The notes under the pieces were generated by a model. The model did no database searches. It was not told the origin of the DNA and saw nothing but the letters and a program-made list of their open reading frames with translations. A stretch of DNA of 64,000 nucleotides from an uncultured Clostridia bacterium (GTDB lineage: Bacteria; Bacillota; Clostridia; TANB77; CAG-508). The DNA lies in assembly GCA_944388935.1 (NCBI GenBank), contig CALXKK010000001.1:62344-126343 (forward strand), written 5' to 3'. Both the position numbers and the translations under genes were made by a program. Of this stretch, positions 5,578-64,000 are shown piece after piece (position 1 is the stretch's first letter; each line of letters opens with the position of its first letter).

Positions 5578-5607
5578 TGTCGAGATTTTTTGTCGAAACT
5601 TGTCGAC
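5578..5607 (+). promoter_or_regulatory. Three tandem Spo0A-box-like heptamers (TGTCGAG, TGTCGAA, TGTCGAC) in the spo0E-like promoter region
   Basis: Heptamers sit at 5578-5584, 5591-5597 and 5601-5607 (spaced 13 and 10 bp), 37-66 bp upstream of the spo0E-like start. A TATAAT -10 lies on the minus strand (complement of 5565-5570) with a poor -35. Confidence 0.45.
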
Positions 5608-5633
5608 AAATTAAATTTTTTTTATTTTTTTTG

Positions 5634-7109
5634 TTATTTTTTTTCAAATAAGGATATGATAAAGGTATCACCACTAAATGGATGATAATATTCTTCTTTT
5701 TCTTTTAGAACAGTAGTGCCTTCCATATCATTTATGTAATCATACATATTTGTATCTCCAGCATCTATTACCCAAATCCTTCCAGTATAATTTTCTATTT
5801 CATCTAAATTGTTTACAACTTTCATTTGTGGTGCAAAAGCTCCATATGCTTTTTCTACAGTCCAATTATCTTTATTATAGAAATATTGCTTATTGTTACT
5901 AAAATCTATTGCCACAGAACTACTTGGTCCAATAGTAGTATAAACAAATATATCATTTGGTTGTACTTCTGATTGTATTGCTTCTATTGGCTTTTCGTTA
6001 TCTTCAGAATAAGATTTGTTCCAAAGAGTAACTCCATTCCAAATTGTAAGTACTAATAAACCACCAACAACTACTATTTTTATTATTCGACTTTTTTCGA
6101 CAGATAATACATATGCTAAAGCAAATATAAATAAACCTAGCATTGGTAACATATATCTTGGAATAAATACTGCTCTTTTAAAAGATATTAATAGTGTTAC
6201 AAGTATAACTATTCCGCAAACTGTAAGAGCTATTGTAACTGGTCTTATTTTTTTCTTATCTTCTAAATATAATTTATGTACTCTTAAAATCATATAAATT
6301 AATATGAACAAACCAAAAATAGAAGGTAAACCAGAATTAATACTATCCAAGAAGAAGAATTCTATAATTTGTGTTATTATATCTGGATAATTTACACTAA
6401 TCCAAAATCCATTTGCAACTCTAGTAGATTGCATAATAAATATTACTGTACCTGGTATATAGCATACAATTTGTATAGCTCCATATATAAACCATCTTTT
6501 TAATAGCTCTTTCTTTTCTCTTAAAATATAGAATAATAAAACAATATTTATTATTCCTATAGTAAATAAGGCAAAATAATGTGTATATGCACTACATATG
6601 CTTGATATTGCAAATATTACCCAATCTTTCTTTTTATTATTTTTATATGCTAAATATGCATAAACTGCAGTAATTGTAACAAATAACATTGCTAAACTAT
6701 ACATTCTTATTTGTGAGCCATAATGCATTGTAACTGGCAAAAGTAATAATATTAGGTTAAAATAAAAACTTACTTTATCTCCAAATTCTTTTCTTATTTT
6801 AACAAAAGAAAAGATTGCAAGCAAAACAATTGGAATTACAGAAAATATTCTTAATGCTATAACACTAGTTCCAAAAATTAAAGAATATATTTTTAATAAT
6901 ACATAATATAAAACTGGGTGAACATCATTAATTGTTGATACAAATAAATTAACCAATGGCTGTCTTGCAATTCCTACAGAATATGCTTCATCAAACCATA
7001 AACTGCTATTAAAACATAGCAAAAGAGGGGCTATTGTTATCAAAACAATAAGCCCTATATTTATTTTATTTAAATGCTTTTCTAAAAAGTTTTTCATTTT
7101 CTTCTCCAT
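5634..7109 (-). CDS. Polytopic membrane glycosyltransferase, GT-C fold (GT39/ArnT/PMT_2-like)
   Basis: WFDEAYSV (DE motif in the first extracytoplasmic loop), HPVLYY, ~11 predicted TM helices plus a C-terminal soluble domain. Confidence 0.55.
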   Translation of the reverse strand: MEKKMKNFLEKHLNKINIGLIVLITIAPLLLCFNSSLWFDEAYSVGIARQPLVNLFVSTINDVHPVLYYVLLKIYSLIFGTSVIALRIFSVIPIVLLAIFSFVKIRKEFGDKVSFYFNLILLLLPVTMHYGSQIRMYSLAMLFVTITAVYAYLAYKNNKKKDWVIFAISSICSAYTHYFALFTIGIINIVLLFYILREKKELLKRWFIYGAIQIVCYIPGTVIFIMQSTRVANGFWISVNYPDIITQIIEFFFLDSINSGLPSIFGLFILIYMILRVHKLYLEDKKKIRPVTIALTVCGIVILVTLLISFKRAVFIPRYMLPMLGLFIFALAYVLSVEKSRIIKIVVVGGLLVLTIWNGVTLWNKSYSEDNEKPIEAIQSEVQPNDIFVYTTIGPSSSVAIDFSNNKQYFYNKDNWTVEKAYGAFAPQMKVVNNLDEIENYTGRIWVIDAGDTNMYDYINDMEGTTVLKEKEEYYHPFSGDTFIISLFEKK

Positions 7110-7110
7110 T

Positions 7111-8121
7111 CTACTTTACATTAGTTTCAACTTGTATATTGCTTCCATCACTTATTACAAGTATATTACCGTCTTCATCTGTTCTATATACCTTTGTACC
7201 TACAGCTTGTAACTTATCTATAGTTTCTTGATTTGGTAAATTATATGAATTATCTTTTCCAACTTGTATTATTGCATATGCTGGCATTATTTGATTTACG
7301 AAAGTTTGAGATGATGAAGTTTTAGAACCATGATGTCCAACCTTTAAAACATCTGTTGGTTGCCAGCTTCTAGAAGCTTCTACTTCCTCTTCTGCATCAC
7401 CCATAAATAAGAAACTATTTCCACCATATGTCATTCTAATTACTATAGAAGATAAGTTTAAATTATCTTCTGTATCATTTGTATCTACCGCCATAATTGT
7501 ACAATTTGCATTTGTTAATTTAAATGTATCTCCAACTGCAGGTGTTGTTACTTGTAAACTCTTATTTGCTATGGCATCTAATACATCTTCATATGTTTTT
7601 GTTGTTGTTTGCATCTTTGGCATATAAATTGTACCAATTTCAAAATTATTTATTACATCATCTAGTCCACCAATATGGTCTTCATGTGGATGTGTTCCAA
7701 CCAAATAATCTATTCTAGTAATTCCTTTTTCTTTTAAGAAATTTACAACTGTATTTCCTGCTTCATTAGTTCCAGCATCGATTAGCATCGTTTTATCCTT
7801 GTCAATAACTAGAATACTATCAGCTTGGCCAACATCTAGATAATAAACTCGTAAATCTCCGTCAACCTCTGCTTGTGTCTCAACTGTATTTGTTATATCT
7901 TCGGTTATTACATTTTCAGTAATCACATTATTACCAATGGAATTTTGCAACATGCTATTAAAATCATGTGTTTCCCAATATGATTTTCCTAATATTAATA
8001 AAACAATTAATATTATAAGTGATGCCAGTCTACTAAGCCATTTACGTCTCTTATAGTATTTAGTCTTTTTGCCTTGTTTTACTTTATCCCATAAATTAGG
8101 TTCATTATTCTTTTGTCCCAT
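7111..8121 (-). CDS. ComEC/Rec2-related MBL-fold metallo-hydrolase with N-terminal TM anchor
   Basis: YYLDVGQADSILV, LIDAGT, HPHEDHIGG and KVGHHGSKTSS motifs of the ComEC C-terminal lactamase_B domain. One N-terminal TM helix. Confidence 0.7.
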   Translation of the reverse strand: MGQKNNEPNLWDKVKQGKKTKYYKRRKWLSRLASLIILIVLLILGKSYWETHDFNSMLQNSIGNNVITENVITEDITNTVETQAEVDGDLRVYYLDVGQADSILVIDKDKTMLIDAGTNEAGNTVVNFLKEKGITRIDYLVGTHPHEDHIGGLDDVINNFEIGTIYMPKMQTTTKTYEDVLDAIANKSLQVTTPAVGDTFKLTNANCTIMAVDTNDTEDNLNLSSIVIRMTYGGNSFLFMGDAEEEVEASRSWQPTDVLKVGHHGSKTSSSQTFVNQIMPAYAIIQVGKDNSYNLPNQETIDKLQAVGTKVYRTDEDGNILVISDGSNIQVETNVK

Positions 8122-47580: not shown

Positions 47581-47609
47581 GAACTTTTAAGGTCCGTCCC
47601 TAAAGTTCA
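47581..47609 (-). repeat. REP-like repeat, copy F (inverted), 5' flank of the RAYT gene; overlaps the last codons and stop of the membrane-protein gene
   Basis: GAACTTTTAAGGTCCGTCCCTAAAGTTCA is the reverse complement of the consensus. Confidence 0.6.
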
Positions 47610-49087
47610 TAAATGTCGAAAAAGTTTACTGTTCCTATCTTTTCTAAGTTTTCCCTTACGTATTTTATTACTTCCGTTGGTGTTTGCCAATTTAACGCAA
47701 TTTTATTATTTTTTATTAGTATTACAGCATTCTTCATATTTTTTATTCTTTCAATTTGTCCTTCTTCGCTGTTTTCTCCTAAATTTCCTTTTAAAAACAT
47801 GTCAAAGTCTTTATTGTATCTGTCTAGTGGTATCATATATACCGCAGCTTCTGAGTCTAAAATGTATACATCTTTATTTTCCTCTTGTATATATGCATCT
47901 ACTTCTATAATTCTATCCTGTAAAGAGGAAGTTATTGGAATGTTAGAAAAATGTTTTAATACTGATTTATCCGATGATGCATATAAATATATATCGTTTA
48001 TTGATTCTAATATTAATAATCCTATAAATGATATTGTTATTATGTTCATAAAATGTTCTATAAATATCGATACTTTTATGTTTTTTATTTCTTGAATACT
48101 TTTGCAAATATAATACAAAACCACCATAACTGTTGGTAGTGCAGCTATTCTAAAGTGTATATCATCTGATATTGGATATACCATAATAAACTGAGCTAAT
48201 GAAAATACAAATAGTATTAAATATTGAATATTATTATGTATTTTTCTTTGCTTCATATTTACTAAATTTGCAATTAACAACACAATTAAAGTAATTGGTA
48301 CTATTAACGCTACAAAAGCCATAAAATCCTTGCCACGTATAAGTTTTAAATATGATATTTTGTTTTGGAATGTTCCTATTCCTAAAACACAATAATCTAT
48401 AAAGCTTGACATTGAATTTGTTAAAAGTAAATATATAACAAAAATCACACATGGAATAAAAACTCCCACAACTCTGTATAAAACTGCTTTTGCGGTTTCT
48501 TTATCTTTTTTTTCTAGCAATAAATATAAAACAGTTATAGCAGAAATAATTATTCCTGTACTTTGCTTAAACAAAATAGTTATCCCAGCAAGTAAACCTA
48601 TTAAAATATTATATTTTGCACCAAAATTTCTATATTTAAGTTCAAAATAAATAAGTAATAATGTAACAAATAAAATTGCATAATTATAATCTATATAAAA
48701 ACTATCTTTTATAAATAAAAACAATAAAGCTGATGAAAATACTGACCATTTAGTATTTAATTTTAGTTCTTTCAAAATTTTATACGCTACAAAAATTATT
48801 CCAGCTCCTAAAAATGTAGAAACAATTCGCATAACAAATAATTCTTGGCCAAATAATTTTAAAATTCCACCAAGAATAAATGATAATAATGGTGTTTGCA
48901 ACATATTAAAATCTTTATATGGTAATAATCCATTTGATATATTTCTTGCGAAATTAAAATTCCATATTTCATCAAGATTTTCTAAATTTCTAGGCAATAC
49001 TGTAGCTGCAAATAATATTATTGTTATAATTATAAAAGATATATCTATTAATCTAGCTTTTAACTTTGCTTTAGTTTCCTCTTTCAC
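47600..49087 (-). CDS. Polytopic membrane protein, possible GT-C-like glycosyltransferase
   Basis: ~12 TM helices. N-terminal loop has NLENLDEIWNFNFARN and LPYKDFNMLQTPL, reminiscent of GT-C DE / HPPL-type motifs. Confidence 0.4.
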   Translation of the reverse strand: MKEETKAKLKARLIDISFIIITIILFAATVLPRNLENLDEIWNFNFARNISNGLLPYKDFNMLQTPLLSFILGGILKLFGQELFVMRIVSTFLGAGIIFVAYKILKELKLNTKWSVFSSALLFLFIKDSFYIDYNYAILFVTLLLIYFELKYRNFGAKYNILIGLLAGITILFKQSTGIIISAITVLYLLLEKKDKETAKAVLYRVVGVFIPCVIFVIYLLLTNSMSSFIDYCVLGIGTFQNKISYLKLIRGKDFMAFVALIVPITLIVLLIANLVNMKQRKIHNNIQYLILFVFSLAQFIMVYPISDDIHFRIAALPTVMVVLYYICKSIQEIKNIKVSIFIEHFMNIITISFIGLLILESINDIYLYASSDKSVLKHFSNIPITSSLQDRIIEVDAYIQEENKDVYILDSEAAVYMIPLDRYNKDFDMFLKGNLGENSEEGQIERIKNMKNAVILIKNNKIALNWQTPTEVIKYVRENLEKIGTVNFFDIYEL

Positions 49088-50111: not shown

Positions 50112-50302
50112 AAAAACATTCCTTTCTCGCTTTGCTTAAAGGCTCTAATAGGATTGTTTTAGTCATTCAACAATTTCCCTATTATATCAAATTTTCTCTT
50201 TAAGATAATATCATTTATAAGCAAAAAGTACAAGTGTTTGCGCTTAAAATGAGGATACTTTTTGACAGCAAAAAAGAGGATACATTAAGTACCCCCATAT
50301 AT

Positions 50303-51187
50303 TTAAACCCTAATCCACTCTTCTACCCATTCATCAGGTATCTTTAAATTTCCTTTTCCACAACCCATGTCTATATTAGGTTTATTTTTTCCGTGGTAAT
50401 CACTTCCACCACTTTTATAATATTTTCTTTCATTACATAAATTTACAAGATATTGAATCTGCTCTTCGAAAAATGTACTATGCATACATTCAATTCCATC
50501 AATATCGTATTTATCTAAGATATCATCTATTAATTGATACTTATCTTTTGCCCATTTATAGATAAATAAATGAGGTAAAAATACTAATCCTCCACACTCC
50601 TTGATAATCTTAACAGCTTCTTCTGTGCTAGGATAATCAGGCGTTTTATCTATATATAATGGATAATTTTGGTCTCCACAATATTTTTTAGAGAAAGCAT
50701 CAAATTCAGCCCAAAAATCTGCTGGAACCTTGGCCTGATTTTCTGGATGTTTTTTTATTTCGTTATAAATAGCTACACTTCCCCAACCATTTTTTGCATC
50801 CCAGTCGATTTTTTCTTTTGGATCCATTACAAGCCCCATTTGTACAGCCTTTTCATATTGAATGTTAAAATATTTTGTCTGTAACTTTTCTCTAGATTTA
50901 TCTTTATAATATTCAACTGTCCATTGTTTCATTTTCTTTGGGTCAAATTGATATCCTAATACCTCAATCAAATTTTTTCCATAACTACATTTTATCTCTA
51001 TTCCCGGAATTATTTTCCCTTTAAAATATTTATGTACATCTATTTTTTCTAGTTCTTCATATCCATTACAATTATCATGATCTGTAATAGAAATATAATT
51101 TAAATTTTTTTCTTGGGCCTTTTTTAATAATTCTATTATAGAATCTGACCCATCTGAATTTGTAGAATGCATATGTAAATCAATCAT
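50303..51187 (-). CDS. PHP-domain phosphoesterase (histidinol-phosphatase-like)
   Basis: MIDLHMHSTNSDGS and ISITDHD metal-binding His motifs of the PHP superfamily. Confidence 0.7.
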   Translation of the reverse strand: MIDLHMHSTNSDGSDSIIELLKKAQEKNLNYISITDHDNCNGYEELEKIDVHKYFKGKIIPGIEIKCSYGKNLIEVLGYQFDPKKMKQWTVEYYKDKSREKLQTKYFNIQYEKAVQMGLVMDPKEKIDWDAKNGWGSVAIYNEIKKHPENQAKVPADFWAEFDAFSKKYCGDQNYPLYIDKTPDYPSTEEAVKIIKECGGLVFLPHLFIYKWAKDKYQLIDDILDKYDIDGIECMHSTFFEEQIQYLVNLCNERKYYKSGGSDYHGKNKPNIDMGCGKGNLKIPDEWVEEWIRV

Positions 51188-52097
51188 TTCTTTCCTCTCC
51201 CACTATTGTATTTACTTTCACTTTTCTATCAGTAGTATTATCTTTATTTTCTAATTCATATAATGTATTTAATTCCTCAACATAGGGCATTAATGTAGGC
51301 GCAGATTCCGAAAAAACTGAATGTATCATTTCATACTGCATAGGAAATTTTCGCATAAAATCTCTTTTAAATGTTCTTCTGCCATATATAACAGCTTCGC
51401 TTGGACTTTTAAACTCTTGCCCTTCTGTAGTATAAAAAGCATTAGGTCTATTTTCTCCTCTTTTATATACAGTTGCATGGTCAAATAATCCTTGCTCTTC
51501 GAATTGCTTCAAAGTTATTATAAAATTATCATAAGAAGCATCATGTACACTTTTAGGAACCCATCTTGGTTCAGTATCACTTACTAATTGCATAGCATAC
51601 CTTAAAAAGGTAGAAGTATAACTTTCCAGTTTTGGAACAGCCATTAATTCTAAATCTATTTCGTAACCTGCTTCTTTATATTCTTTTGCCATTTTTACGA
51701 AACCTGATGTTGCTCTCATGGTCCCTTCATATATAATACTTAACTTATTATCTCTACAATAATCTCTAATTTCTTGACTTGCTCTATCTGCATCTGGTAA
51801 TAAGGCTAAGTGAATGTTTTCTCTATCCTGTTTATCTGCTACTTCAAAATTTGGATGCATTGATCTAACAACATCATAATCCGTAATTACTGCATTATAA
51901 TTTAATTGTTCATTTACAACTGGAGTCAATTTAGATTTTCCAGCTCCTGATTGTCCTGCTACAAAAACTAATCTTGGTTTTTTTTCTGGTTTCTTGCCTG
52001 TTGTAAAAAATAAATTAACTGAATGATAATATTGTTGATATTCTTCTTCTGTAAGTTTATATTTTGCTTGTAATACTTCTAATTCATCTTGTTCCAT
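51180..52097 (-). CDS. Zeta-toxin family kinase (UDP-GlcNAc kinase-type toxin)
   Basis: Walker A GQSGAGKS, SMHPNFEV (cf. QQHPNFDE), MAVPKLESYTSTFLRY (cf. MAVPKINSYLGTIERY), GLFDHATVYKRGE (cf. GLFSDIRLYNREG). Collinear with streptococcal zeta/PezT. Confidence 0.8.
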   Translation of the reverse strand: MEQDELEVLQAKYKLTEEEYQQYYHSVNLFFTTGKKPEKKPRLVFVAGQSGAGKSKLTPVVNEQLNYNAVITDYDVVRSMHPNFEVADKQDRENIHLALLPDADRASQEIRDYCRDNKLSIIYEGTMRATSGFVKMAKEYKEAGYEIDLELMAVPKLESYTSTFLRYAMQLVSDTEPRWVPKSVHDASYDNFIITLKQFEEQGLFDHATVYKRGENRPNAFYTTEGQEFKSPSEAVIYGRRTFKRDFMRKFPMQYEMIHSVFSESAPTLMPYVEELNTLYELENKDNTTDRKVKVNTIVGEERND

Positions 52098-52297
52098 TTC
52101 TTGCTATCTCCTACATATTTTTTTATAACTTCCATATTTTCTTTATTTATTTCATCTCTATCCAAAATTAGTATCTGTAATTCTTTTTTTATTTTTGGAT
52201 CCTGAGTTTTTTCATATTCTATGGATAGTTTTCCAACTTCTCGTGCAATCTTTTCTCGTGCAATCTCTAATCCAAATTCATTTAATAATAAATCCAT
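52079..52297 (-). CDS. Candidate epsilon-type antitoxin (72 aa helical protein) overlapping the zeta toxin start
   Basis: MDLLLNEFGLEIAREKIAREVGKLSIEYEK... GGAG SD lies 8 nt upstream of ATG 52297. Its 3' end overlaps the toxin start by 19 nt. The track start (TTG 52327) is less likely. Confidence 0.45.
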   Translation of the reverse strand: MDLLLNEFGLEIAREKIAREVGKLSIEYEKTQDPKIKKELQILILDRDEINKENMEVIKKYVGDSKKWNKMN

Positions 52298-52448
52298 TTT
52301 TTTACTCCATTTCTTACTTTTCGACAATAATTATAGCATTAAATTTAGTTTATTACAATTGTTTTGTTAAAAATACATTTTCCACTAATGTCATATTTTA
52401 TATATAAAATGCTACTCTATTTTTTCGATATATACTTTTACAATAATA

Positions 52449-52486
52449 TACAAAAAAATAAGAGGATACTTTTATGTACCCTCATA
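52449..52486 (-). terminator. Terminator downstream of the GT2 gene
   Basis: GAGGGTAC-ataaaa-GTATCCTC followed on the minus strand by TTATTTTTTT. A similar GAGGATAC-containing hairpin lies at ~50258-50292. Confidence 0.45.
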
Positions 52487-52489
52487 ATT

Positions 52490-53500
52490 TTAAAACAACA
52501 ATGGTTTAATTTGTTTCTCTATTAACTTTTTATATATTTTTACAAATATCTGTTGGAATCCATATTTATATGCAATATGCGCAACCCAATAACTTTTGTT
52601 AGGCACGTTTTTGAATTTAAAGCAAGGATTTTTTCTCCATTCGAAAAAGTTTATATCTAAATAATTCATTGTTTCTCTAACTAGGCTCTTTAAATCACTA
52701 CCAGTTTCGAAAGATAATTCTATTAAAGATCGTAAGCCTATTTTTGAGAATGCTATAAATGATAATATATTTTTCATTCTTTCATACTTTCCAGCATCTT
52801 TAAAAATCTTCTTTCCTTCTACTAAACCAGCTTTTAAATCCTTTATTTGAACAGCATTTTTTAAACTTTGAATAGAATTATCTTCATATTTAAAGAATAA
52901 TTCTTCATTAATAAAAGATACTGTATTTGCTTTAGCATAACAACTTATAACAAAAATTTCATCTTGACATCCATCATAATTTTGGAATTTTATATCCTTT
53001 ATTGTTTCTTTTTTTATTAATTTATTACCTGCATCTAAATTTAAATATGCGAAATTTAGATTATTTCCATCTAAGCTTTCTTTTTCTTTAAATTTGTTTT
53101 CCAATCCTGTAACTCTTAATTCATTAGAATTAATGTCAATTATATTATAACCGCAAATTGCAATGTCTGTATTGTTATTTTCTGCAGCATTATACATCTT
53201 TTCTATAGCTGTTTTTTCTAAACACATATTTCCGTTCATAACTAAAATATATTTGCCATCAGCCTCTTCTAATGCCTCATTTTTAGCCAAAACATCTTGT
53301 GCCTTTGTTTTATATATAATTTTTATATTTTTATGTTTTTCTTGTGTTTCTTTTACAAAGTCATCAATCTGTGTGTTTTCTTCTTTATAAATACAAATAA
53401 TTTCTATATTCTCTAATGTTTGATTTACTAAACTATTTAAACATTCTTTTACTTTTTTATGTCTCTTCTTTAAAATTGTAATAACTGATACATTATGCAT
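52490..53500 (-). CDS. Glycosyltransferase family 2-like (GT-A) protein
   Basis: N-terminal VSVITILKKRHKKVKECLNSLVNQTLENIEIICI matches the GT2 Rossmann-like start. Central acidic motifs are degenerate. Confidence 0.5.
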   Translation of the reverse strand: MHNVSVITILKKRHKKVKECLNSLVNQTLENIEIICIYKEENTQIDDFVKETQEKHKNIKIIYKTKAQDVLAKNEALEEADGKYILVMNGNMCLEKTAIEKMYNAAENNNTDIAICGYNIIDINSNELRVTGLENKFKEKESLDGNNLNFAYLNLDAGNKLIKKETIKDIKFQNYDGCQDEIFVISCYAKANTVSFINEELFFKYEDNSIQSLKNAVQIKDLKAGLVEGKKIFKDAGKYERMKNILSFIAFSKIGLRSLIELSFETGSDLKSLVRETMNYLDINFFEWRKNPCFKFKNVPNKSYWVAHIAYKYGFQQIFVKIYKKLIEKQIKPLLF

Positions 53501-53563
53501 TGCAATTCCCCCTAATTATCTTTAAATACTCCGCCTTTTTGTATATTTTCAAAACTTACTATT

Positions 53564-54517
53564 TTATTCTTCATTATCGCTTTCGTCAATATTAAATGTT
53601 CTTTCTACTATATATTGTGGTCTTCTCTTAGTTTCATCATAGATTCTTCCTATATATTCTCCTATCATCCATAAAGATATAAGTATCATTCCACTTAAGA
53701 AAGTCATAGTTACCATTAAAGATGTCCACCCAGCAGTTAAATTGTTCCAATTAAATATATATGATAAAATTGCATATATTAGAATTACTATTGATATAGC
53801 CAAAGAAATAATTCCCATTGTTCCTACAATTTTTAGTGGTTTTGTAGAAAAACTAAAAATTCCATCTTTTGCAAGTTTAAGCATTTTCTTTAATGGATAT
53901 TTAGTCTTTCCTGCAAATCTTTCTTTTCTTTCATATTCAAAAGGTGTTTGCTTAAAGCCTACCCAACTAAACAAACCTCTTAAAAATTTATTATGTTCTG
54001 GTAAAGAATTTACTACATCTACAACTTTTCTATCTACTAGCCTAAAATCCCCTGTATCTTTAGGTATTTCCACATCTGATAATGCATTTAATGTTTTATA
54101 GAACATTGAAGCAGTTAGTAATTTAAATTTAGATTCTCCTTCTCTAGACTTTCTTTTTCCATAGATTACTTCATTTCCAGCTTTCCATAGTTTAAGCATT
54201 TCCGGTATAAGTTCTGGTGGATCCTGCAAATCTGCATCTATAATTACTATTGCATCACCAGTAACATATTTAAGTCCTGCTGTTACTGCACATTGATGCC
54301 CAAAGTTTCTAGAAAAAGAAATTACTTTAACTTTTTTATTTTCGTTAGCTATATTTACTAATATACTTAAGGTCTTATCTTTGCTTCCATCATTTATAAA
54401 TATAATTTCATAATCATATCCATTTAAATTTTCTAATACCTTTTTCAATCTTTTATAGCATTCTTCTGCTACTTCTTCTTCATAATACATAGGTACTACA
54501 ACTGAAACTTTTTTCAT
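53564..54517 (-). CDS. Bactoprenol-phosphate glycosyltransferase (GT2, GtrB/CsbB/DPM1-like) with two C-terminal TM helices
   Basis: VSVVVPMYYEEE...IIFINDGSKDKT...IDADLQDPPE. 317 aa with a C-terminal membrane hairpin. Confidence 0.8.
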   Translation of the reverse strand: MKKVSVVVPMYYEEEVAEECYKRLKKVLENLNGYDYEIIFINDGSKDKTLSILVNIANENKKVKVISFSRNFGHQCAVTAGLKYVTGDAIVIIDADLQDPPELIPEMLKLWKAGNEVIYGKRKSREGESKFKLLTASMFYKTLNALSDVEIPKDTGDFRLVDRKVVDVVNSLPEHNKFLRGLFSWVGFKQTPFEYERKERFAGKTKYPLKKMLKLAKDGIFSFSTKPLKIVGTMGIISLAISIVILIYAILSYIFNWNNLTAGWTSLMVTMTFLSGMILISLWMIGEYIGRIYDETKRRPQYIVERTFNIDESDNEE

Positions 54518-55623: not shown

Positions 55624-58206
55624 TTACTCTTTTATTTTGCTCTCATTATTTTTCGACTTCTCTTTATATTTTTTTACTTTTACTACAACAATAAAAACTA
55701 TAATTGAAATTACTGTAATAATTGCTCCTTCTTTTAGACCTTTTGGTACATAAGAAAGTTTGATTTTTTGTTCTCCTTTATCTAAATTAAATGTTACAAA
55801 TCCATTTGAATTTTCTACATTAGATTTTTTTCCATTTACCTCTAAAGTCCATCCCTCATCATAAGGAATTGTTGTAAAAACATAATGGCCTTCATCTGAA
55901 ACATTAACATTTGCTTCCAAATTATTATTTTTAAATTCTACATTTTGTATTTGATTCTTTTCTACTTTTTGATATGCTTTTTCAAAATTTGTTAAATTTA
56001 ATTCTTTTAACATAAATTCTTTTAATTCAATAGTATCATTTGTATTAAATTCCAATTTCAGTTTTAAGGTATCTGTATCTCCTACATTTTTAATCTTGAA
56101 AACTCCATTTTTATTTGCACCCAAATAATCTTTATAGTACTCATCATTTACATATACTTTAAATGCAGAGTCTTCTAAGTTATAAGATGTAGTAATCCAA
56201 AAATATAATTCTTCTTTTATATTACTAGTATCAAATGTAAGTTCTATATAAGATTTTTCTTTTTCCCCTGTATAATAATCTCCTTCCTTTGTAACATTTA
56301 CCATTTCGATATTTTCCACTGGAATATTGCTAAAATATTCATAGTCACAATTTGTTATTTGATTCCATAAATCTGTTTGTATTTCAAAAGGATTTTGTTT
56401 CATATCTATTTCTTCTACTTTTTGGTTAGTAATATAACCAATAGTTAAAGGATATTTATTTTGATATAATTCTTCTCCATCTTCTAAATCTTTCACTGAT
56501 TCAAAATATCTTACTGGATCTTTAGATATTTTATAACGAATTCCAAACATGCTATCAGTTATCAATGTGTTCCCATATCCATATGAAGGGAAAAACATAT
56601 ACCAATTATATCCAATTTCTTTCATGAAGTCTACCTGGCTTTGTTCAAATGTTGAGCTTGAATGTCCCACGCCATTATAATTAAACAATAACGAATCATT
56701 TAAATAAAAATTTTTCTCTTTTTCCATTCTGTAAAAGTCTGAATCATATTCCTTTGCTTTCGTTATAATTTTATCATAATACTTTAAATTATTCATATAT
56801 TTGTTTCTTTCTATATGTCCTATTTGATTAAATGAAGCTATAGCGTTTATTAATAATTCCACTACACAAATAACACAAAGCAAAACAGAATAAATCATTT
56901 TTTTAAATTTTATTTGTAATGATAGTATTATTCCATAGACTATCATAAGAAAAATTGATAGATAAATTAAGTTTTCTTGTAAAAATGAATTTTCTTGTTT
57001 TTTTATCAACCAAATAATTCCAATATCTATTAAAACTATGAATGGAACCCATTTCCAATTAATATTTCTTTTTCCTTCTGTTAATGCTTTCGCTGCTATT
57101 ACAACAAGTAAAAAGGATAAAATAAACGAATATCTATATGGAAATCCTATTGGTTCTTTTAATCCATGCCACATTAAGTTAATTATCTTTGTTTGAAAAC
57201 TAATTATCACAACAACCAAGAAAATTAAACTAGAAATTTTCTTTCTAACTGAAATGTTAGGATTAAAGAAATAAAATTGTGCTAATATAAGTGTTATTAA
57301 ACCTGTATAAATGTTAGGTAAACCAGAGCTGAGAAGTTGTTTTTCATTTACTGCTCCAATTAATAATTTCTCACACAAATTTAATAAATCAAAATTTTTT
57401 GAAAATGCAGTGTTCCAATCTATTGTAAATCCTAATCCTTTCCCAGCTTGTAATGTAAAAATAACTGGCAATAAAATAATAGCTGCTATACCAATTCCCA
57501 GTAAACTATATAAAGCAAATTTTAAAAATTGTTTTATTCTTTTTTTCCACTCAATTTTTTGTAATAAATTATCATACAAGAAATATAATCCAGTAAATAT
57601 CGCTGCAGCATAGCCTATGTAAAAGTTAACAATAAAAGATAATGCTAAAGTTATAACATACATTTTAAATTTATTTTGGCTTGTTATTTTTTCTACCCCT
57701 AAGACCATAAGTGGCAATAAAATAAGATTGTCTAACCACATAACATTCATTTGGTAAGAAATATTATATCCACAAAAAGCATAACTTAAGGATAAAATTG
57801 CTAAGATCCATTTGTTTGATACTTTTTCTCTTAAGAAAAAATACATTGTAATAGCACATGATACTATTTTTAAGCCTGTAACTACAACAATTTCCTCTGT
57901 TACCCAATAATTCGAGAATAATAGGAAAATAATATTGTATGGGCTCATAAGATAATAAGCCCATATACCTATCATATTTCCTCCTAACCCTTTGCCAAAT
58001 GAGAAAAGAATAGAATCTCGTCCAAATAAACAATTTTTCATATATTCCCAAAATGGTATATACTGTCCTGCAATATCTCCTGCAATCATTGATTTTTCTC
58101 CGAATGGATATACTTTACATACAATCATTTGTATTAAAAACATAAGAGCTGCTACCAAAACAATATATATTAGACATTTATACTTTTGATATATTTTTTT
58201 TATCAT
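55624..58206 (-). CDS. YfhO-family GT-C membrane glycosyltransferase (paralogue 1)
   Basis: 860 aa. ~13 N-terminal TM helices, large extracytoplasmic C-terminal domain, terminal TM helix. Tandem with a second copy and near the GtrB/CsbB-like GT2. Confidence 0.65.
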   Translation of the reverse strand: MIKKIYQKYKCLIYIVLVAALMFLIQMIVCKVYPFGEKSMIAGDIAGQYIPFWEYMKNCLFGRDSILFSFGKGLGGNMIGIWAYYLMSPYNIIFLLFSNYWVTEEIVVVTGLKIVSCAITMYFFLREKVSNKWILAILSLSYAFCGYNISYQMNVMWLDNLILLPLMVLGVEKITSQNKFKMYVITLALSFIVNFYIGYAAAIFTGLYFLYDNLLQKIEWKKRIKQFLKFALYSLLGIGIAAIILLPVIFTLQAGKGLGFTIDWNTAFSKNFDLLNLCEKLLIGAVNEKQLLSSGLPNIYTGLITLILAQFYFFNPNISVRKKISSLIFLVVVIISFQTKIINLMWHGLKEPIGFPYRYSFILSFLLVVIAAKALTEGKRNINWKWVPFIVLIDIGIIWLIKKQENSFLQENLIYLSIFLMIVYGIILSLQIKFKKMIYSVLLCVICVVELLINAIASFNQIGHIERNKYMNNLKYYDKIITKAKEYDSDFYRMEKEKNFYLNDSLLFNYNGVGHSSSTFEQSQVDFMKEIGYNWYMFFPSYGYGNTLITDSMFGIRYKISKDPVRYFESVKDLEDGEELYQNKYPLTIGYITNQKVEEIDMKQNPFEIQTDLWNQITNCDYEYFSNIPVENIEMVNVTKEGDYYTGEKEKSYIELTFDTSNIKEELYFWITTSYNLEDSAFKVYVNDEYYKDYLGANKNGVFKIKNVGDTDTLKLKLEFNTNDTIELKEFMLKELNLTNFEKAYQKVEKNQIQNVEFKNNNLEANVNVSDEGHYVFTTIPYDEGWTLEVNGKKSNVENSNGFVTFNLDKGEQKIKLSYVPKGLKEGAIITVISIIVFIVVVKVKKYKEKSKNNESKIKE

Positions 58207-61088: not shown

Positions 61089-64000
61089 TCAAATTATTCT
61101 TAAATAATCTGATGCAACAAAACCTTTTGTTCCATTATCAAAAATTACTAAATCCCACCAATGGTTATCATAATAATAAGAATCCTTTATTATGCGAGTT
61201 CCTGTTGTTCCATTTTTTAGACTTGCCAAAATAGAAGTATTCTTAGTGCTAGGTCCATTTCTCACATTAACCGTTGAACCAGTATTTACAATTACTCTCT
61301 CACTACAATTTGAAGGATCATCTACATATTGCAAATAATTACCTGAACAATATCCAATATTTCCTGTTGATGTAAAAACTTTGTGCCATCCGTTATCATA
61401 TCTTTCCATAGAAATTAGAATTGTTCCATTTTGTAATCTGCCTATATCAGCATATTGTTGGCTAGGTCCATCTCTAAGCACTAATGATCCACTTACTTTT
61501 ACATGCACATACCTTGGTTTAGAATCTGTTAAATTTGGTGCAACAACACTATTTCCTTGACCATTTGGCCTAACTGCTGGTGTGTTTGGCATATTCTCAT
61601 ATACTGGTATAATAAATTTAATTGCATTATCTAAAGTTCCTGTATCTACGTAAGCACTTCTAAATATTCTTGCTTCGCTATATGCAGCTGATAAATTTTG
61701 CATATATTGATGAGTATAGAAGCCTCCGGGACTATTTGGATTTACATCAAATTTATTTAAATACAATGTGTTCTGATTAGCATCCAAATATCCTTTTCTT
61801 ATAAATCTTATTCCTCCTTCAATTCCTTTTTGCATACTATCCCAACCTTCAGCTTTAGCTTTTGCTAAAGCTGTAGCGACATCATTTCCTACTACTGCAC
61901 CTATATTAAATGGATTAAAATATGTTTTACCATCTCCTCCATCCATATATATTGTATCTGCACCATATCGTCCCTGTTCTTGGAATAGTCTAGCAATAAT
62001 ATAATATGGGTTTACATTTTGATGCTTACAAGATATTCTAACATCCTCTGCAAAGTCATGTAAAAAAGTGTCATTTACTTGATACTGAATAGATTCTATT
62101 GTTGCTCCACTGTTTTCAAAATCCGATAAATCTACAAACTGAAAAACATCTATATCATTCAAAAAATTTCTGGTGTCCATAAAATATGCTATTCCATTAT
62201 AAGAAGCAGAAGCCCAATTTCCACTAACATAAGGGTTCGGAGCAATCCAATCTCCTTTATATACATTTGTATCTACTAAATTTGCAGTTCTATTTGCATA
62301 TTCATATTCTCCTTTAACAGCTGTATAAAAATCGATACCCGTATATAATATTTCAAATTGCCAGTTTGGATGAGCATTTGCTAATTTATCAACATTTTCA
62401 GCAATTCCTGGATATTTATTTGAATCTATGCTAACGCCTATACCTGTTTTTATAAAAACAAATCTCTGTTTTATATTTTTTTCATTATAATATATTTGAA
62501 TTTTCGAGCCATTTTCTATTGGGCCATTTATATCCAATGTTAGACTATAGTCATTAAGTGGTATTATTCCCATACTTCCATTACCATTGTCTCTAATAAT
62601 CCATTTTTGGGTATCATTGTCGTTCCATTCATATTGTATTACATCCGTTCCACTTGCCATATTATTATTTTTTACGGTTAAATATTTATCACTATGGCAA
62701 AAAGAAATTCTATAATATCCATTTACATATTGTATATTAAATTTTTGGGCTTTCATATTTAAATTTTCCCAAATTTGTACTCTTCCATTATTTTCTGTAT
62801 TACTAGCAGATGCTTCTATTACTATATTCTTATTTGCCATTGGAGCTATTTGATAGATGCCACTTACTATTGTTCTCTCACTTTTACTTTCTATTTTTTC
62901 TAACTTAAACTCTTGTCCAGCTCCTCCACTTTTTTCATAAACTTGAATATTCGTTCCATTGGCTGAACTAGAATAACGTGCATCTAAATATAGTGAATCT
63001 CTTTTAGATATTATGTTGTAATTTCCAAATTCATTTTTCTTTATTATCCATTTTTGATTATCATTTCCTCCATTATTCTCCCATTGGTCAACATTTGATT
63101 CGTTTCCTCTTCCCACAACATCTATTCTTTTTCCAGAATGTATTGGGACTATTTCATAATAACCATTTCCATCATAAACTAAATTAAATTGTTGTTGAGC
63201 TACATTTGCATAACTCCATATGTGCACATTAACTCCATTCCCTAACTTGCCACCATCTACAGTTAAACTCTGAGTTAGAGCATTTGCTAAGACAATTTTA
63301 TAGGTTCCCTCTTCTACAGTTTTTTCTCCTATTGGCACTTCACTATCTAATATTTTAAATTTCTGATTATCTTGCCCTGTAAAATTTTCTACACACAATA
63401 AGTCACAATTTGCTCCATTTCCTTTTACTGATAGATATAATCCATTAATTTTCGAAATAATATAATAATACCCACCTCCTGCATCTTTAACTATCCATTT
63501 TTGGTTATCGTTTCCTCCATTGTACTCCCATTGGTCTATCAAAGTTCCACTTTCTACTCCTGAACCAACTACATCTAATAATTTTCCAGATTTTATATTT
63601 TTTATTGTATAATATCCTTCTTCATTGTAAATAAATTTAAACCTCTGTTGGTCCACCATTATATAATCCCATAAATTTATATTTGCTCCATTTTCTATTC
63701 TTCCTCCATCTACTCCAACTGCTCTTCCACTTAATTTTGTTATTATCTTATTTGTAGTATCACCCTGAATTGTTTCTGTACCTTTTTCATCTATTCTTTC
63801 TATAAAAAACTCTTGTGTCTTTGCATTAGTCCCAGTTTCTACATTAACATTTTCATTATTTGCTCCTTTTCCATTTTCTAAGTTTAAATATAACCCATTT
63901 AATTTTGACCTTATCTTATATGCCTCTGCCCCTTTTTCTATTACCCATTTTTGATTAGCATGTCCTCCGTTATACTCCCATTGGTTAACATTAGTTCCAC
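61089..64000 (-). CDS. Cell-wall hydrolase: ricin-B lectin (beta-trefoil) repeats, GH73-like N-acetylglucosaminidase, two SH3b domains; 5' end beyond the window
   Basis: Repeated QxW/(D/A)NQKW lectin motifs. Central YYIIARLFQEQGRYGAD and YTHQYMQNLSAAYSEA resemble GH73 catalytic motifs. C-terminal SH3b-like repeats (VLRDGPS...GWHKV; NVRNGPS...HWWDL). Hand translation shows the frame is open upstream of the Met at 63659 through to position 64000. Confidence 0.7.
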   Translation of the reverse strand, partial: GTNVNQWEYNGGHANQKWVIEKGAEAYKIRSKLNGLYLNLENGKGANNENVNVETGTNAKTQEFFIERIDEKGTETIQGDTTNKIITKLSGRAVGVDGGRIENGANINLWDYIMVDQQRFKFIYNEEGYYTIKNIKSGKLLDVVGSGVESGTLIDQWEYNGGNDNQKWIVKDAGGGYYYIISKINGLYLSVKGNGANCDLLCVENFTGQDNQKFKILDSEVPIGEKTVEEGTYKIVLANALTQSLTVDGGKLGNGVNVHIWSYANVAQQQFNLVYDGNGYYEIVPIHSGKRIDVVGRGNESNVDQWENNGGNDNQKWIIKKNEFGNYNIISKRDSLYLDARYSSSANGTNIQVYEKSGGAGQEFKLEKIESKSERTIVSGIYQIAPMANKNIVIEASASNTENNGRVQIWENLNMKAQKFNIQYVNGYYRISFCHSDKYLTVKNNNMASGTDVIQYEWNDNDTQKWIIRDNGNGSMGIIPLNDYSLTLDINGPIENGSKIQIYYNEKNIKQRFVFIKTGIGVSIDSNKYPGIAENVDKLANAHPNWQFEILYTGIDFYTAVKGEYEYANRTANLVDTNVYKGDWIAPNPYVSGNWASASYNGIAYFMDTRNFLNDIDVFQFVDLSDFENSGATIESIQYQVNDTFLHDFAEDVRISCKHQNVNPYYIIARLFQEQGRYGADTIYMDGGDGKTYFNPFNIGAVVGNDVATALAKAKAEGWDSMQKGIEGGIRFIRKGYLDANQNTLYLNKFDVNPNSPGGFYTHQYMQNLSAAYSEARIFRSAYVDTGTLDNAIKFIIPVYENMPNTPAVRPNGQGNSVVAPNLTDSKPRYVHVKVSGSLVLRDGPSQQYADIGRLQNGTILISMERYDNGWHKVFTSTGNIGYCSGNYLQYVDDPSNCSERVIVNTGSTVNVRNGPSTKNTSILASLKNGTTGTRIIKDSYYYDNHWWDLVIFDNGTKGFVASDYLRII

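Follow-up and report, generated by a model that had tools for sequence, protein, structure and literature searches.

Does the zeta-like kinase gene on the chromosome of an uncultured gut Clostridia bacterium form an ordinary two-gene toxin–antitoxin (TA) module, or does the phosphoesterase gene beside it belong to the same functional unit? The locus lies on contig CALXKK010000001.1 (assembly GCA_944388935.1), within a stretch of 64,000 nucleotides (contig positions 62,344 to 126,343), hereafter the window, and consists of a small open reading frame (ORF), a gene for a P-loop kinase and a gene for a PHP-domain phosphoesterase. Our analysis favors, with a probability of roughly 0.55, a zeta-type TA pair functionally coupled to a TrpH/YciV-like phosphoesterase, acting by a mechanism that we infer. 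An earlier note, made from the sequence alone, had interpreted the first two genes as an epsilon/zeta-type module. That interpretation appears right in kind and is partly supported, with two corrections: the small ORF probably represents a new antitoxin family, and the unit is an operon of three genes rather than two. The three genes are as follows.

52079..52297, minus strand: small ORF of 72 aa, putative antitoxin or inhibitor (ORF call, Shine-Dalgarno sequence, conserved family)
51180..52097, minus strand: zeta/PezT-family P-loop kinase of 305 aa, putative toxin (Pfam, PDB matches, AlphaFold2 (AF2) model)
50303..51187, minus strand: PHP-domain phosphoesterase of 294 aa, TrpH/YciV/Cv1693 type (PF02811 at 8e-10, PDB matches)

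A zeta-family kinase with an intact active site

The 305-aa protein is a bona fide zeta/PezT-family kinase by sequence, fold and catalytic residues, as the earlier note had proposed. Its match to the Pfam Zeta_toxin profile (PF06414; E = 1.5e-39, 136 bits against a gathering score of 22.3) covers profile positions 8–190 of 199, and its top sequence matches in the PDB, far beyond what chance would give, are zeta (1gvn_B, 2.6e-23) and PezT (2p5t_B, 2e-21), which also lead the fold matches. The AF2 model (predicted local distance difference test score, pLDDT, 85) was aligned by Foldseek with zeta 3q8x_B over 271 columns (E = 1.7e-17; template modelling scores 0.73/0.81), and also with PezT (4.5e-15), AvrRxo1 (2.5e-6) and ng_zeta1 (1.8e-4); generic P-loop kinases, polynucleotide kinases among them, gave weaker fold matches (E > 1e-3). 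The ORF listing placed both the 305-aa and the 72-aa ORFs on the minus strand where they had been reported, with all of the motifs quoted for them, those of the kinase being GQSGAGKS, HPNFE, MAVPKLESY and GLFDHATVYKRGE.

The Walker A motif occupies G48–S55, including K54, and the catalytic residues are D75, E124, T126, R128, R166 and R178. When the kinase relatives were clustered at the 90% level, giving 27 clusters with pairwise identities of about 21–100%, the equivalents of zeta K46, D67, E116, R158 and R171 (K54, D75, E124, R166 and R178) were invariant in all 27. The window protein also retains T126 and R128, which correspond to the UDP-phosphate contacts T118 and R120 of zeta, and a conserved helical C-terminal region extends to about residue 289.

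The acceptor of this kinase may differ from that of zeta. In the crystal structure of zeta with UDP-N-acetylglucosamine (UDP-GlcNAc, UNAG), T128 contacts the uracil and E100 the ribose 2'-OH (PMC3062530). By alignment, which is less certain for distant members, the T128 position is Met in the window kinase and hydrophobic in all 27 clusters; the E100 position, likewise assigned by alignment, is Gln in the window kinase and variable in the other clusters. Because these uridine-contact residues are not conserved, UDP-GlcNAc is unproven as the substrate. The score against the NCBIfam PezT equivalog NF041574 was 90.4 bits, relative to a cut-off of 470. Judged from its residues, the protein is an active-looking member of the zeta family, and it cannot be named a UDP-GlcNAc 3'-kinase.

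Among the long relatives of the kinase (P0211, P0213, P0217, P0218, P0237) are tandem zeta-zeta proteins and polyvalent proteins with DUF3991/Toprim or LPD1 domains, which are typical of conjugative elements.

An obligate small partner of a separate family

The small ORF adjoins the kinase gene in all 29 kinase lineages examined, with the order reversed in two of them, and no kinase lacking an adjoining small ORF was found among the relatives examined. A homologous ORF lies directly upstream of the kinase gene in 27 of 27 clusters, as well as in lineage L114, and in the P0060/P0063 subfamily (37–38% kinase identity) it lies downstream, where it is recognized by the hidden Markov model of the small family at E-values of 2e-7 to 9e-7. 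Since it is conserved beside every kinase relative, the small ORF must be a genuine gene rather than an accidental reading frame, and it is a conserved, obligate partner of the kinase. Its product counts 72 aa from the ATG, the form also chosen by gene callers on other assemblies, or 82 aa from an upstream TTG; across the family, lengths range roughly from 53 to 80 aa, and the homologs upstream of the kinase gene measure about 65–80 aa. Two motifs characterize the family, an acidic N-terminal helix (LNExGxEIAxEK) in the close subfamily and a C-terminal LIxDRDEIxKGNxExIKKY. The AF2 model (pLDDT 79) has two long helices and a short third (residues 3–31, 34–51 and 55–62). The earlier description of a helical ORF directly upstream, with a good Shine-Dalgarno sequence and a 19-nt overlap with the kinase start, agrees with these helices, with a GGAG about 8 nt before the ATG and with an overlap at 52079–52097.

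The small ORF had no match in Pfam or NCBIfam, none to a Pfam antitoxin family, and no homolog in the PDB. A profile search of the PDB with the small family did not retrieve epsilon (1gvn_A) or PezA (2p5t_A) at E ≤ 10, and hhalign returned a probability of 0.1% against epsilon and against the C-terminal domain of PezA, both reference sequences having first been verified against the PDB. The comparison with epsilon and PezA that the earlier note had recommended was accordingly negative. No DNA-binding domain was found in the small ORF with Pfam or NCBIfam, and no omega-like or helix-turn-helix (HTH) regulator gene at the locus, where the upstream gene encodes a family 2 glycosyltransferase (GT2) and is followed by a terminator-like hairpin. 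The small protein thus seems epsilon-like in position, size, helicity and want of a DNA-binding domain, and is not a demonstrable member of the epsilon family; it would instead represent a new antitoxin family, separate from epsilon/PezA.

Constant co-occurrence, translational coupling, fast evolution and reversible gene order are the behavior expected of a cognate antitoxin, which the small protein probably is. The pair may be considered a type II TA system in kind because co-occurrence is obligate, translation is coupled, either order is found, the two proteins co-evolve fast and the toxin gene decays recurrently; we regard a TA-like pair of small protein and kinase as likely. Of the epsilon/zeta-type module originally proposed, the TA-like pair is upheld by co-occurrence and coupling, and the epsilon affiliation is not.

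Some relatives depart from the arrangement in the window. A sister kinase subfamily with the Walker A sequence GQPGCGKT has its small ORF downstream of the kinase gene (L112, 3680-3892; L115, 1220-1381) and no PHP gene, and in L115 the kinase/small pair lies directly upstream of ylxM-ffh-rpsP. In the L012 lineage (L012 5769-5985, also L013 and L014; 39% kinase identity), a frameshift splits the small ORF into overlapping ORFs of 33 aa and 40 aa. The sequence at the junction (ATGTCTGA) is identical in three independent samples, and the kinase and PHP genes are intact; this could mean that the antitoxin is split or decaying, or that recoding takes place.

A three-gene operon

The kinase start overlaps the small ORF by 19 nt, and the PHP start overlaps the kinase stop codon by 8 nt (51180-51187); like the small ORF, the kinase gene has a GGAG-type ribosome-binding site. 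The elements that would delimit the transcription unit are the following.

52330..52358, minus strand: candidate sigma-70-like promoter, TTGTAA-17-TATAAT with TG extension (consensus match only, 10 of 12 positions)
52462..52483, minus strand: terminator-like hairpin with T-run, upstream boundary (8-bp stem, 4 GC pairs)
50276..50296, minus strand: terminator-like hairpin with T-run, downstream boundary (second GGGTAC-N-GTATCC copy)

The promoter candidate, about 33 nt upstream of the small-ORF start, has the top score in the region, where the total count of promoter-like sites was not above that of shuffled sequences. A hairpin scan of the locus found no terminator-like site within the three-gene unit. 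The upstream hairpin is located just past the stop codon of the preceding GT2 gene and the downstream hairpin 7 nt past the PHP stop codon. With this layout, the small ORF, kinase and PHP genes form a three-gene operon, conserved in many uncultured gut Clostridia, with one promoter-like site and a hairpin at each end. The PHP gene belongs to the kinase unit because of the 8-nt overlap and because no terminator-like site separates the two, so that the earlier description of the module as next to a PHP gene, correct as to adjacency, understated the relationship; the PHP gene comes third in the operon, and its linkage to the kinase is recurrent.

The two hairpins are GC-rich and similar (G[A/G]GGGTAC..GTATCCTC followed by a T-run), and about 40 nt around them can be aligned. 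The motif GGGTAC-N-GTATCC occurs only twice in 64 kb, bracketing the operon, with 0 copies expected by chance. The paired hairpins could be a terminator duplicated by cassette insertion, or just a shared type of terminator. Flanking direct repeats were rejected as a general cassette signature, as they were present only in the window and L020 among the 14 loci with all three genes that were tested. In L020, the trio is flanked by two opposite-orientation copies (5603-5731, 7859-7987) of an element of about 130 nt resembling a miniature inverted-repeat transposable element, with perfect 31-nt terminal inverted repeats (TGGGTCAGTAGGGACGTTCCTTGTGACACAC); this element was absent from the other fetched loci.

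Recurrent linkage of kinase and phosphoesterase

The third protein matches PF02811 (8e-10; 39.7 bits against 26.4), and its metal ligands are invariant (H5, H7, D12, H37, E64, H206, H236, D263 and H265). Its PDB matches are 3e0f, 2yb1 and 7ug9, and its HxH and GGSDxH motifs align with those of 3e0f and 2yb1. The enzymes that it resembles most are Cv1693 (3',5'-nucleotide bisphosphate phosphatase), RNase AM and a PHP phosphoesterase from Bifidobacterium. Partial NCBIfam matches remained below their cut-offs, including nucleoside bisphosphate phosphatase (89 against 400 bits) and RNase RNM (77 against 375); TrlF and Spaf_1101, families in which PHP is fused to P-loop ATPases, were among the weak matches. 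Enzymes of the TrpH type cleave 3'-phosphoesters in 5'-phosphorylated nucleotides and in short RNAs by hydrolysis, and removal of flavin adenine dinucleotide caps is also among their activities (PMC7261194, PMC11528712, PMC9410882).

Searches from either side recovered the association. When seeded with the kinase, they showed a PHP gene directly downstream in 6 of 15 lineages, namely that of the window, L015 (Ca. Merdicola), L017, L020, L012 (39% kinase identity) and L114 (25%), and the outer flanks differ among all six. Look-ups seeded with PHP, blind to its neighbors, found the small ORF and a Zeta_toxin gene directly upstream in three of four cases, in three further contexts. A metagenome scan with the PHP alignment gave 77 loci, which were then clustered at 90%; the kinase was adjacent in 14 of the 19 clusters with PHPs at least 50% identical to that of the window, and in 0 of 9 clusters of more distant PHPs. 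The PHP of the window belongs to a subfamily of its own, defined by linkage to the zeta-type kinase. In L067, L074, L078 and L094, the genes occur in the permuted and equally tight order PHP-small-zeta. The outer flanks of the 27 kinase clusters fall into 16 context groups, and the trio is found in at least 10 of these. Finally, the identities of PHP and kinase co-vary (Pearson r = 0.83 over 136 cluster pairs), which is co-divergence of the two proteins.

These comparisons indicate that the PHP is a conserved third partner and not a chance neighbor; for its functional coupling to the pair, the odds seem about even. To the extent that the literature could be covered, no kinase–PHP link is described in the available portions of publications on zeta toxins with a PHP domain or phosphoesterase, of a PezAT review or of the AvrRxo1 paper.

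Natural kinase lesions and the case for a toxin

Kinase alleles within single species bear varied inactivating lesions beside an intact PHP gene. They comprise deletions of 1 nt and of 219 bp, the latter lying between 12-nt direct repeats and taking out the catalytic core of the kinase, an insertion of 2 nt, and a single-base difference by which the ORF is split, in loci L034, L041, L054 and L055 (also L051 and L075). This variety suggests that gut populations lose kinase function repeatedly, and the lesions may be read as signs of a dispensable or costly kinase.

Such decay bears on whether the locus encodes a toxin at all. The kinase and phosphoesterase might instead be a metabolic or RNA-processing pair with a small regulatory subunit, for example in a nucleotide or nucleotide-sugar phosphorylation cycle, or as a 5'-OH polynucleotide kinase feeding an RNase AM-type 5'-phosphate-dependent 5'-3' exoribonuclease. 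The lack of conservation at the uridine contacts of zeta, the polynucleotide kinases among the weaker fold matches, the relation of the PHP to RNase AM and to the phosphatase of adenosine 3',5'-bisphosphate (pAp) and the cell-wall glycosylation genes nearby would all suit such a role, as would vertical inheritance with the PHP and the lack of any compositional sign of transfer, viral-contig relative or PADLOC match. However, in sequence and fold the kinase resembles zeta/PezT (E = 1e-17) far more than it does metabolic kinases or polynucleotide kinases (E > 1e-3), it evolves, as does the small protein, much faster than the PHP, and it has been repeatedly inactivated or lost in nature. The small partner is moreover obligate in either gene order, as in TA pairs. 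We therefore judge a system without a toxin to be improbable.

Partner or passenger?

The main rival to a coupled system is a plain two-gene zeta-type TA module, with the PHP as an unrelated housekeeping enzyme (RNase AM/pAp-phosphatase-like) upstream of which an ancient TA pair came to reside, the linkage being kept by operon inertia because the PHP depends on the TA promoter. Several comparative observations fit this alternative and weigh against coupling. The small ORF and zeta gene occur without an adjacent PHP gene in seven lineages (L003, L006, L009, L018, L019, L021 and L022), and two further lineages with the zeta-small order also have no PHP gene, giving nine lineages with the pair alone. 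Conversely, five PHP clusters have no kinase, and neither partner strictly needs the other nearby. Median identity is 59% for PHP and 28% for the kinase, and the much stronger conservation of the PHP is also what one would expect of a housekeeping enzyme downstream of a resident TA module. In one shared neighborhood (ligA ... DHH, NFACT), all three genes are present in L015, the pair without PHP in L003 and L022, and the PHP gene alone in L029; because these loci share their surroundings and differ in content, either the PHP gene or the pair can be lost. The lesions described above likewise affect the kinase while the PHP stays intact. An exhaustive profile search for the kinase returned 6191 representatives at E ≤ 1e-3, and a Pfam scan of 10 long relatives detected no kinase–PHP fusion among them.

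Other observations that count against a zeta-type pair with a coupled phosphoesterase concern the proteins themselves. PHPs of the TrpH type are known for action on nucleotide 3'-phosphoesters, not on sugar 3-phosphates, and the product of the kinase, with T128 and E100 of zeta both replaced, may not be UNAG 3'-phosphate. The small protein has no sequence relationship to epsilon/PezA that was detectable by PDB profile search or hhalign, and its predicted fold, a helical hairpin, is uninformative. Co-divergence with the PHP and the absence of a compositional anomaly are atypical of freely mobile TA cassettes.

On the other hand, a housekeeping PHP carried along by inertia does not readily account for the breadth of the association. 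TA modules rarely keep one neighbor over such divergence (about 21–25% kinase identity) while the flanks change at least 10 times, inertia does not easily produce the permuted PHP-small-zeta order, in which the genes are packed just as tightly, and the association is specific to one PHP subfamily (14/19 against 0/9 clusters). An unrelated PHP is thus possible but rather unlikely in our assessment. Were the PHP only a passenger, the locus would amount to a chromosomal zeta-type TA module of the ordinary kind whose antitoxin is novel.

Genomic context, mobility and defense

The host is a low-GC (about 23–30%) uncultured member of the gut Clostridia, with relatives that include Ca. Merdicola. Neighbors of the operon are housekeeping genes (ruvB, prs) and genes of cell-wall glycosylation. 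The envelope-glycosylation genes on the minus strand (47600-49087, 52490-54517 and 55624-58206) comprise a pair of GT2 glycosyltransferase genes and two genes for large polytopic membrane proteins, one of 495 aa and the other of 860 aa; they would be relevant if the substrate of the kinase were a nucleotide sugar. Downstream of ligA in two of the relatives (L003 2889-3128, L029 3737-3970) is a conserved ORF of 77–79 aa (MxGxYTFERFExELDxGYQMYYTYVRNRYLLFKT...) that is unrelated to the small antitoxin-like family.

Recent horizontal acquisition was rejected, as GC content is flat across the locus. A phage or prophage origin was likewise set aside, no relative having been found in a scan of viral contigs, which was limited to its peptide patterns, and membership in a defense system was not retained after PADLOC gave no match for any of the three proteins.

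These results also bear on a possible role in abortive infection, in which phage infection would free the kinase from its inhibitor and the PHP would serve as a second effector or a reset enzyme. It is well established that phage defense is a function of many TA systems, kinase toxins included (reviewed in PMC10532202), and both the rapid diversification of the kinase and small protein and the PHP–P-loop ATPase fusions among the weak NCBIfam matches (TrlF, Spaf_1101) would be in keeping with this role. Against it are the absence of a PADLOC model match for the three proteins, the housekeeping neighbors in place of a defense island, and co-divergence instead of a patchy horizontal distribution, and we consider an anti-phage function very improbable.

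A possible reversible switch

For the favored zeta-type pair with a coupled phosphoesterase, we propose the following mechanism. The kinase would transfer a phosphate from ATP to a hydroxyl group of some nucleotide-containing metabolite, which could be a UDP-sugar, the kind of acceptor that zeta and PezT use, or else a different nucleotide or a dinucleotide, and it would inhibit growth if left unchecked. The 72-aa protein would be its cognate, fast-co-evolving inhibitor, functionally epsilon-like, with the conserved acidic N-terminal helix most likely blocking the ATP site of the kinase. Antitoxins of zeta toxins occlude that site (PMC3218275), and kinases of the zeta family are known to phosphorylate sugar or ribose hydroxyls of UDP-sugars and nicotinamide adenine dinucleotide (NAD) (PMC3062530, PMC5923241, PMC5087710). 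The PHP, in turn, would most likely remove the phosphate added by the kinase or degrade the phosphorylated product, which would make intoxication reversible.

Given the chemistries of TrpH-type enzymes and zeta kinases, action of the PHP on the kinase product would be the most economical functional link between the two; we nevertheless hold direct reversal of the product to be doubtful. More speculatively, the PHP may be a dedicated reset enzyme, hydrolyzing the phosphorylated nucleotide or nucleotide sugar produced by the kinase, and the trio a reversible growth switch of kinase, inhibitor and product phosphatase, perhaps with a substrate other than UDP-GlcNAc, for example a 3'-phosphorylated adenine dinucleotide. 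To our knowledge, zeta toxins are the only TA toxins known to poison cell-wall precursor pools through small-molecule phosphorylation. Dormancy induced by zeta has been reported to be reversible (PMC4179160, PMC3266247), and the phosphorylated products of zeta have been described as unreactive or dead-end metabolites in a paper whose available portion makes no mention of an enzyme that removes them (PMC5923241). A phosphoesterase that has been inherited together with a zeta-type kinase throughout an entire clade of Clostridia from human and animal guts is a testable candidate for such a reset enzyme, and the kinase would stand for a zeta subfamily with an acceptor that may differ from UDP-GlcNAc. 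If the PHP does act in this manner, the locus would provide the first example of a zeta-type system equipped with its own detoxifying phosphoesterase.

Comparison with known systems

A close parallel is epsilon/zeta of the Streptococcus pyogenes plasmid pSM19035 (1GVN, 3Q8X). The window kinase follows the fold of zeta along essentially its entire chain and has counterparts of its Walker A motif and catalytic Asp as well as of E116, T118, R120, R158 and R171, and in both systems a small all-helical protein with no DNA-binding domain is encoded directly upstream of the kinase. The kinase is, however, only about 24% identical to zeta, with the uridine contacts T128 and E100 replaced, and the small protein, with 72 aa compared with the 90 aa of epsilon, has no detectable homology to the latter. 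Epsilon/zeta is also plasmid-borne and accompanied by the omega repressor, whereas the window locus is chromosomal and has no omega gene. PezAT of S. pneumoniae (2P5T) is, like the window locus, a chromosomal zeta-family kinase with an antitoxin gene upstream. In contrast to the small ORF, PezA has 158 aa and an N-terminal HTH repressor domain, and its C-terminal domain could not be aligned with the small protein; relative to PezT, the window kinase has an extra conserved C-terminal helical region, as well as a PHP partner. A phosphoesterase is conserved with the window pair, and no such partner appeared in the zeta/PezAT literature searched, which was covered incompletely and in part.

Zeta-fold kinases far more distant than zeta and PezT demonstrate that acceptors other than the UNAG 3'-OH can be used. 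AvrRxo1 (AvrRxo1-ORF1/ORF2, Arc1) phosphorylates the 3'-OH of NAD (PMC5087710), and ng_zeta1 of the ng_epsilon1/ng_zeta1 system phosphorylates the 4'-OH of UDP-N-acetylmuramic acid (UNAM), UNAG and UDP-glucose (PMC5923241); no phosphoesterase partner came up in the available parts of these papers. The partner proteins Arc1 and ng_epsilon1 are unrelated to the small ORF of the window.

The PHP has the fold of TrpH/YciV (RNase AM), Cv1693 and the Bifidobacterium adolescentis PHP (7UG9, 2YB1, 3E0F), with a similar length of about 290 aa and the same His, Asp and Glu ligands, yet it falls below the NCBIfam equivalog cut-offs of the characterized TrpH-type enzymes. For its proposed role, a conceptual parallel may be found in DarT/DarG-like TA systems, where the chemical modification made by the toxin is undone by an enzyme encoded alongside it. 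Reversal by the PHP is hypothetical, and the window system would differ from DarT/DarG in possessing a separate candidate for a stoichiometric inhibitor, the small ORF, and in a chemistry based on the phosphorylation and dephosphorylation of a small molecule.

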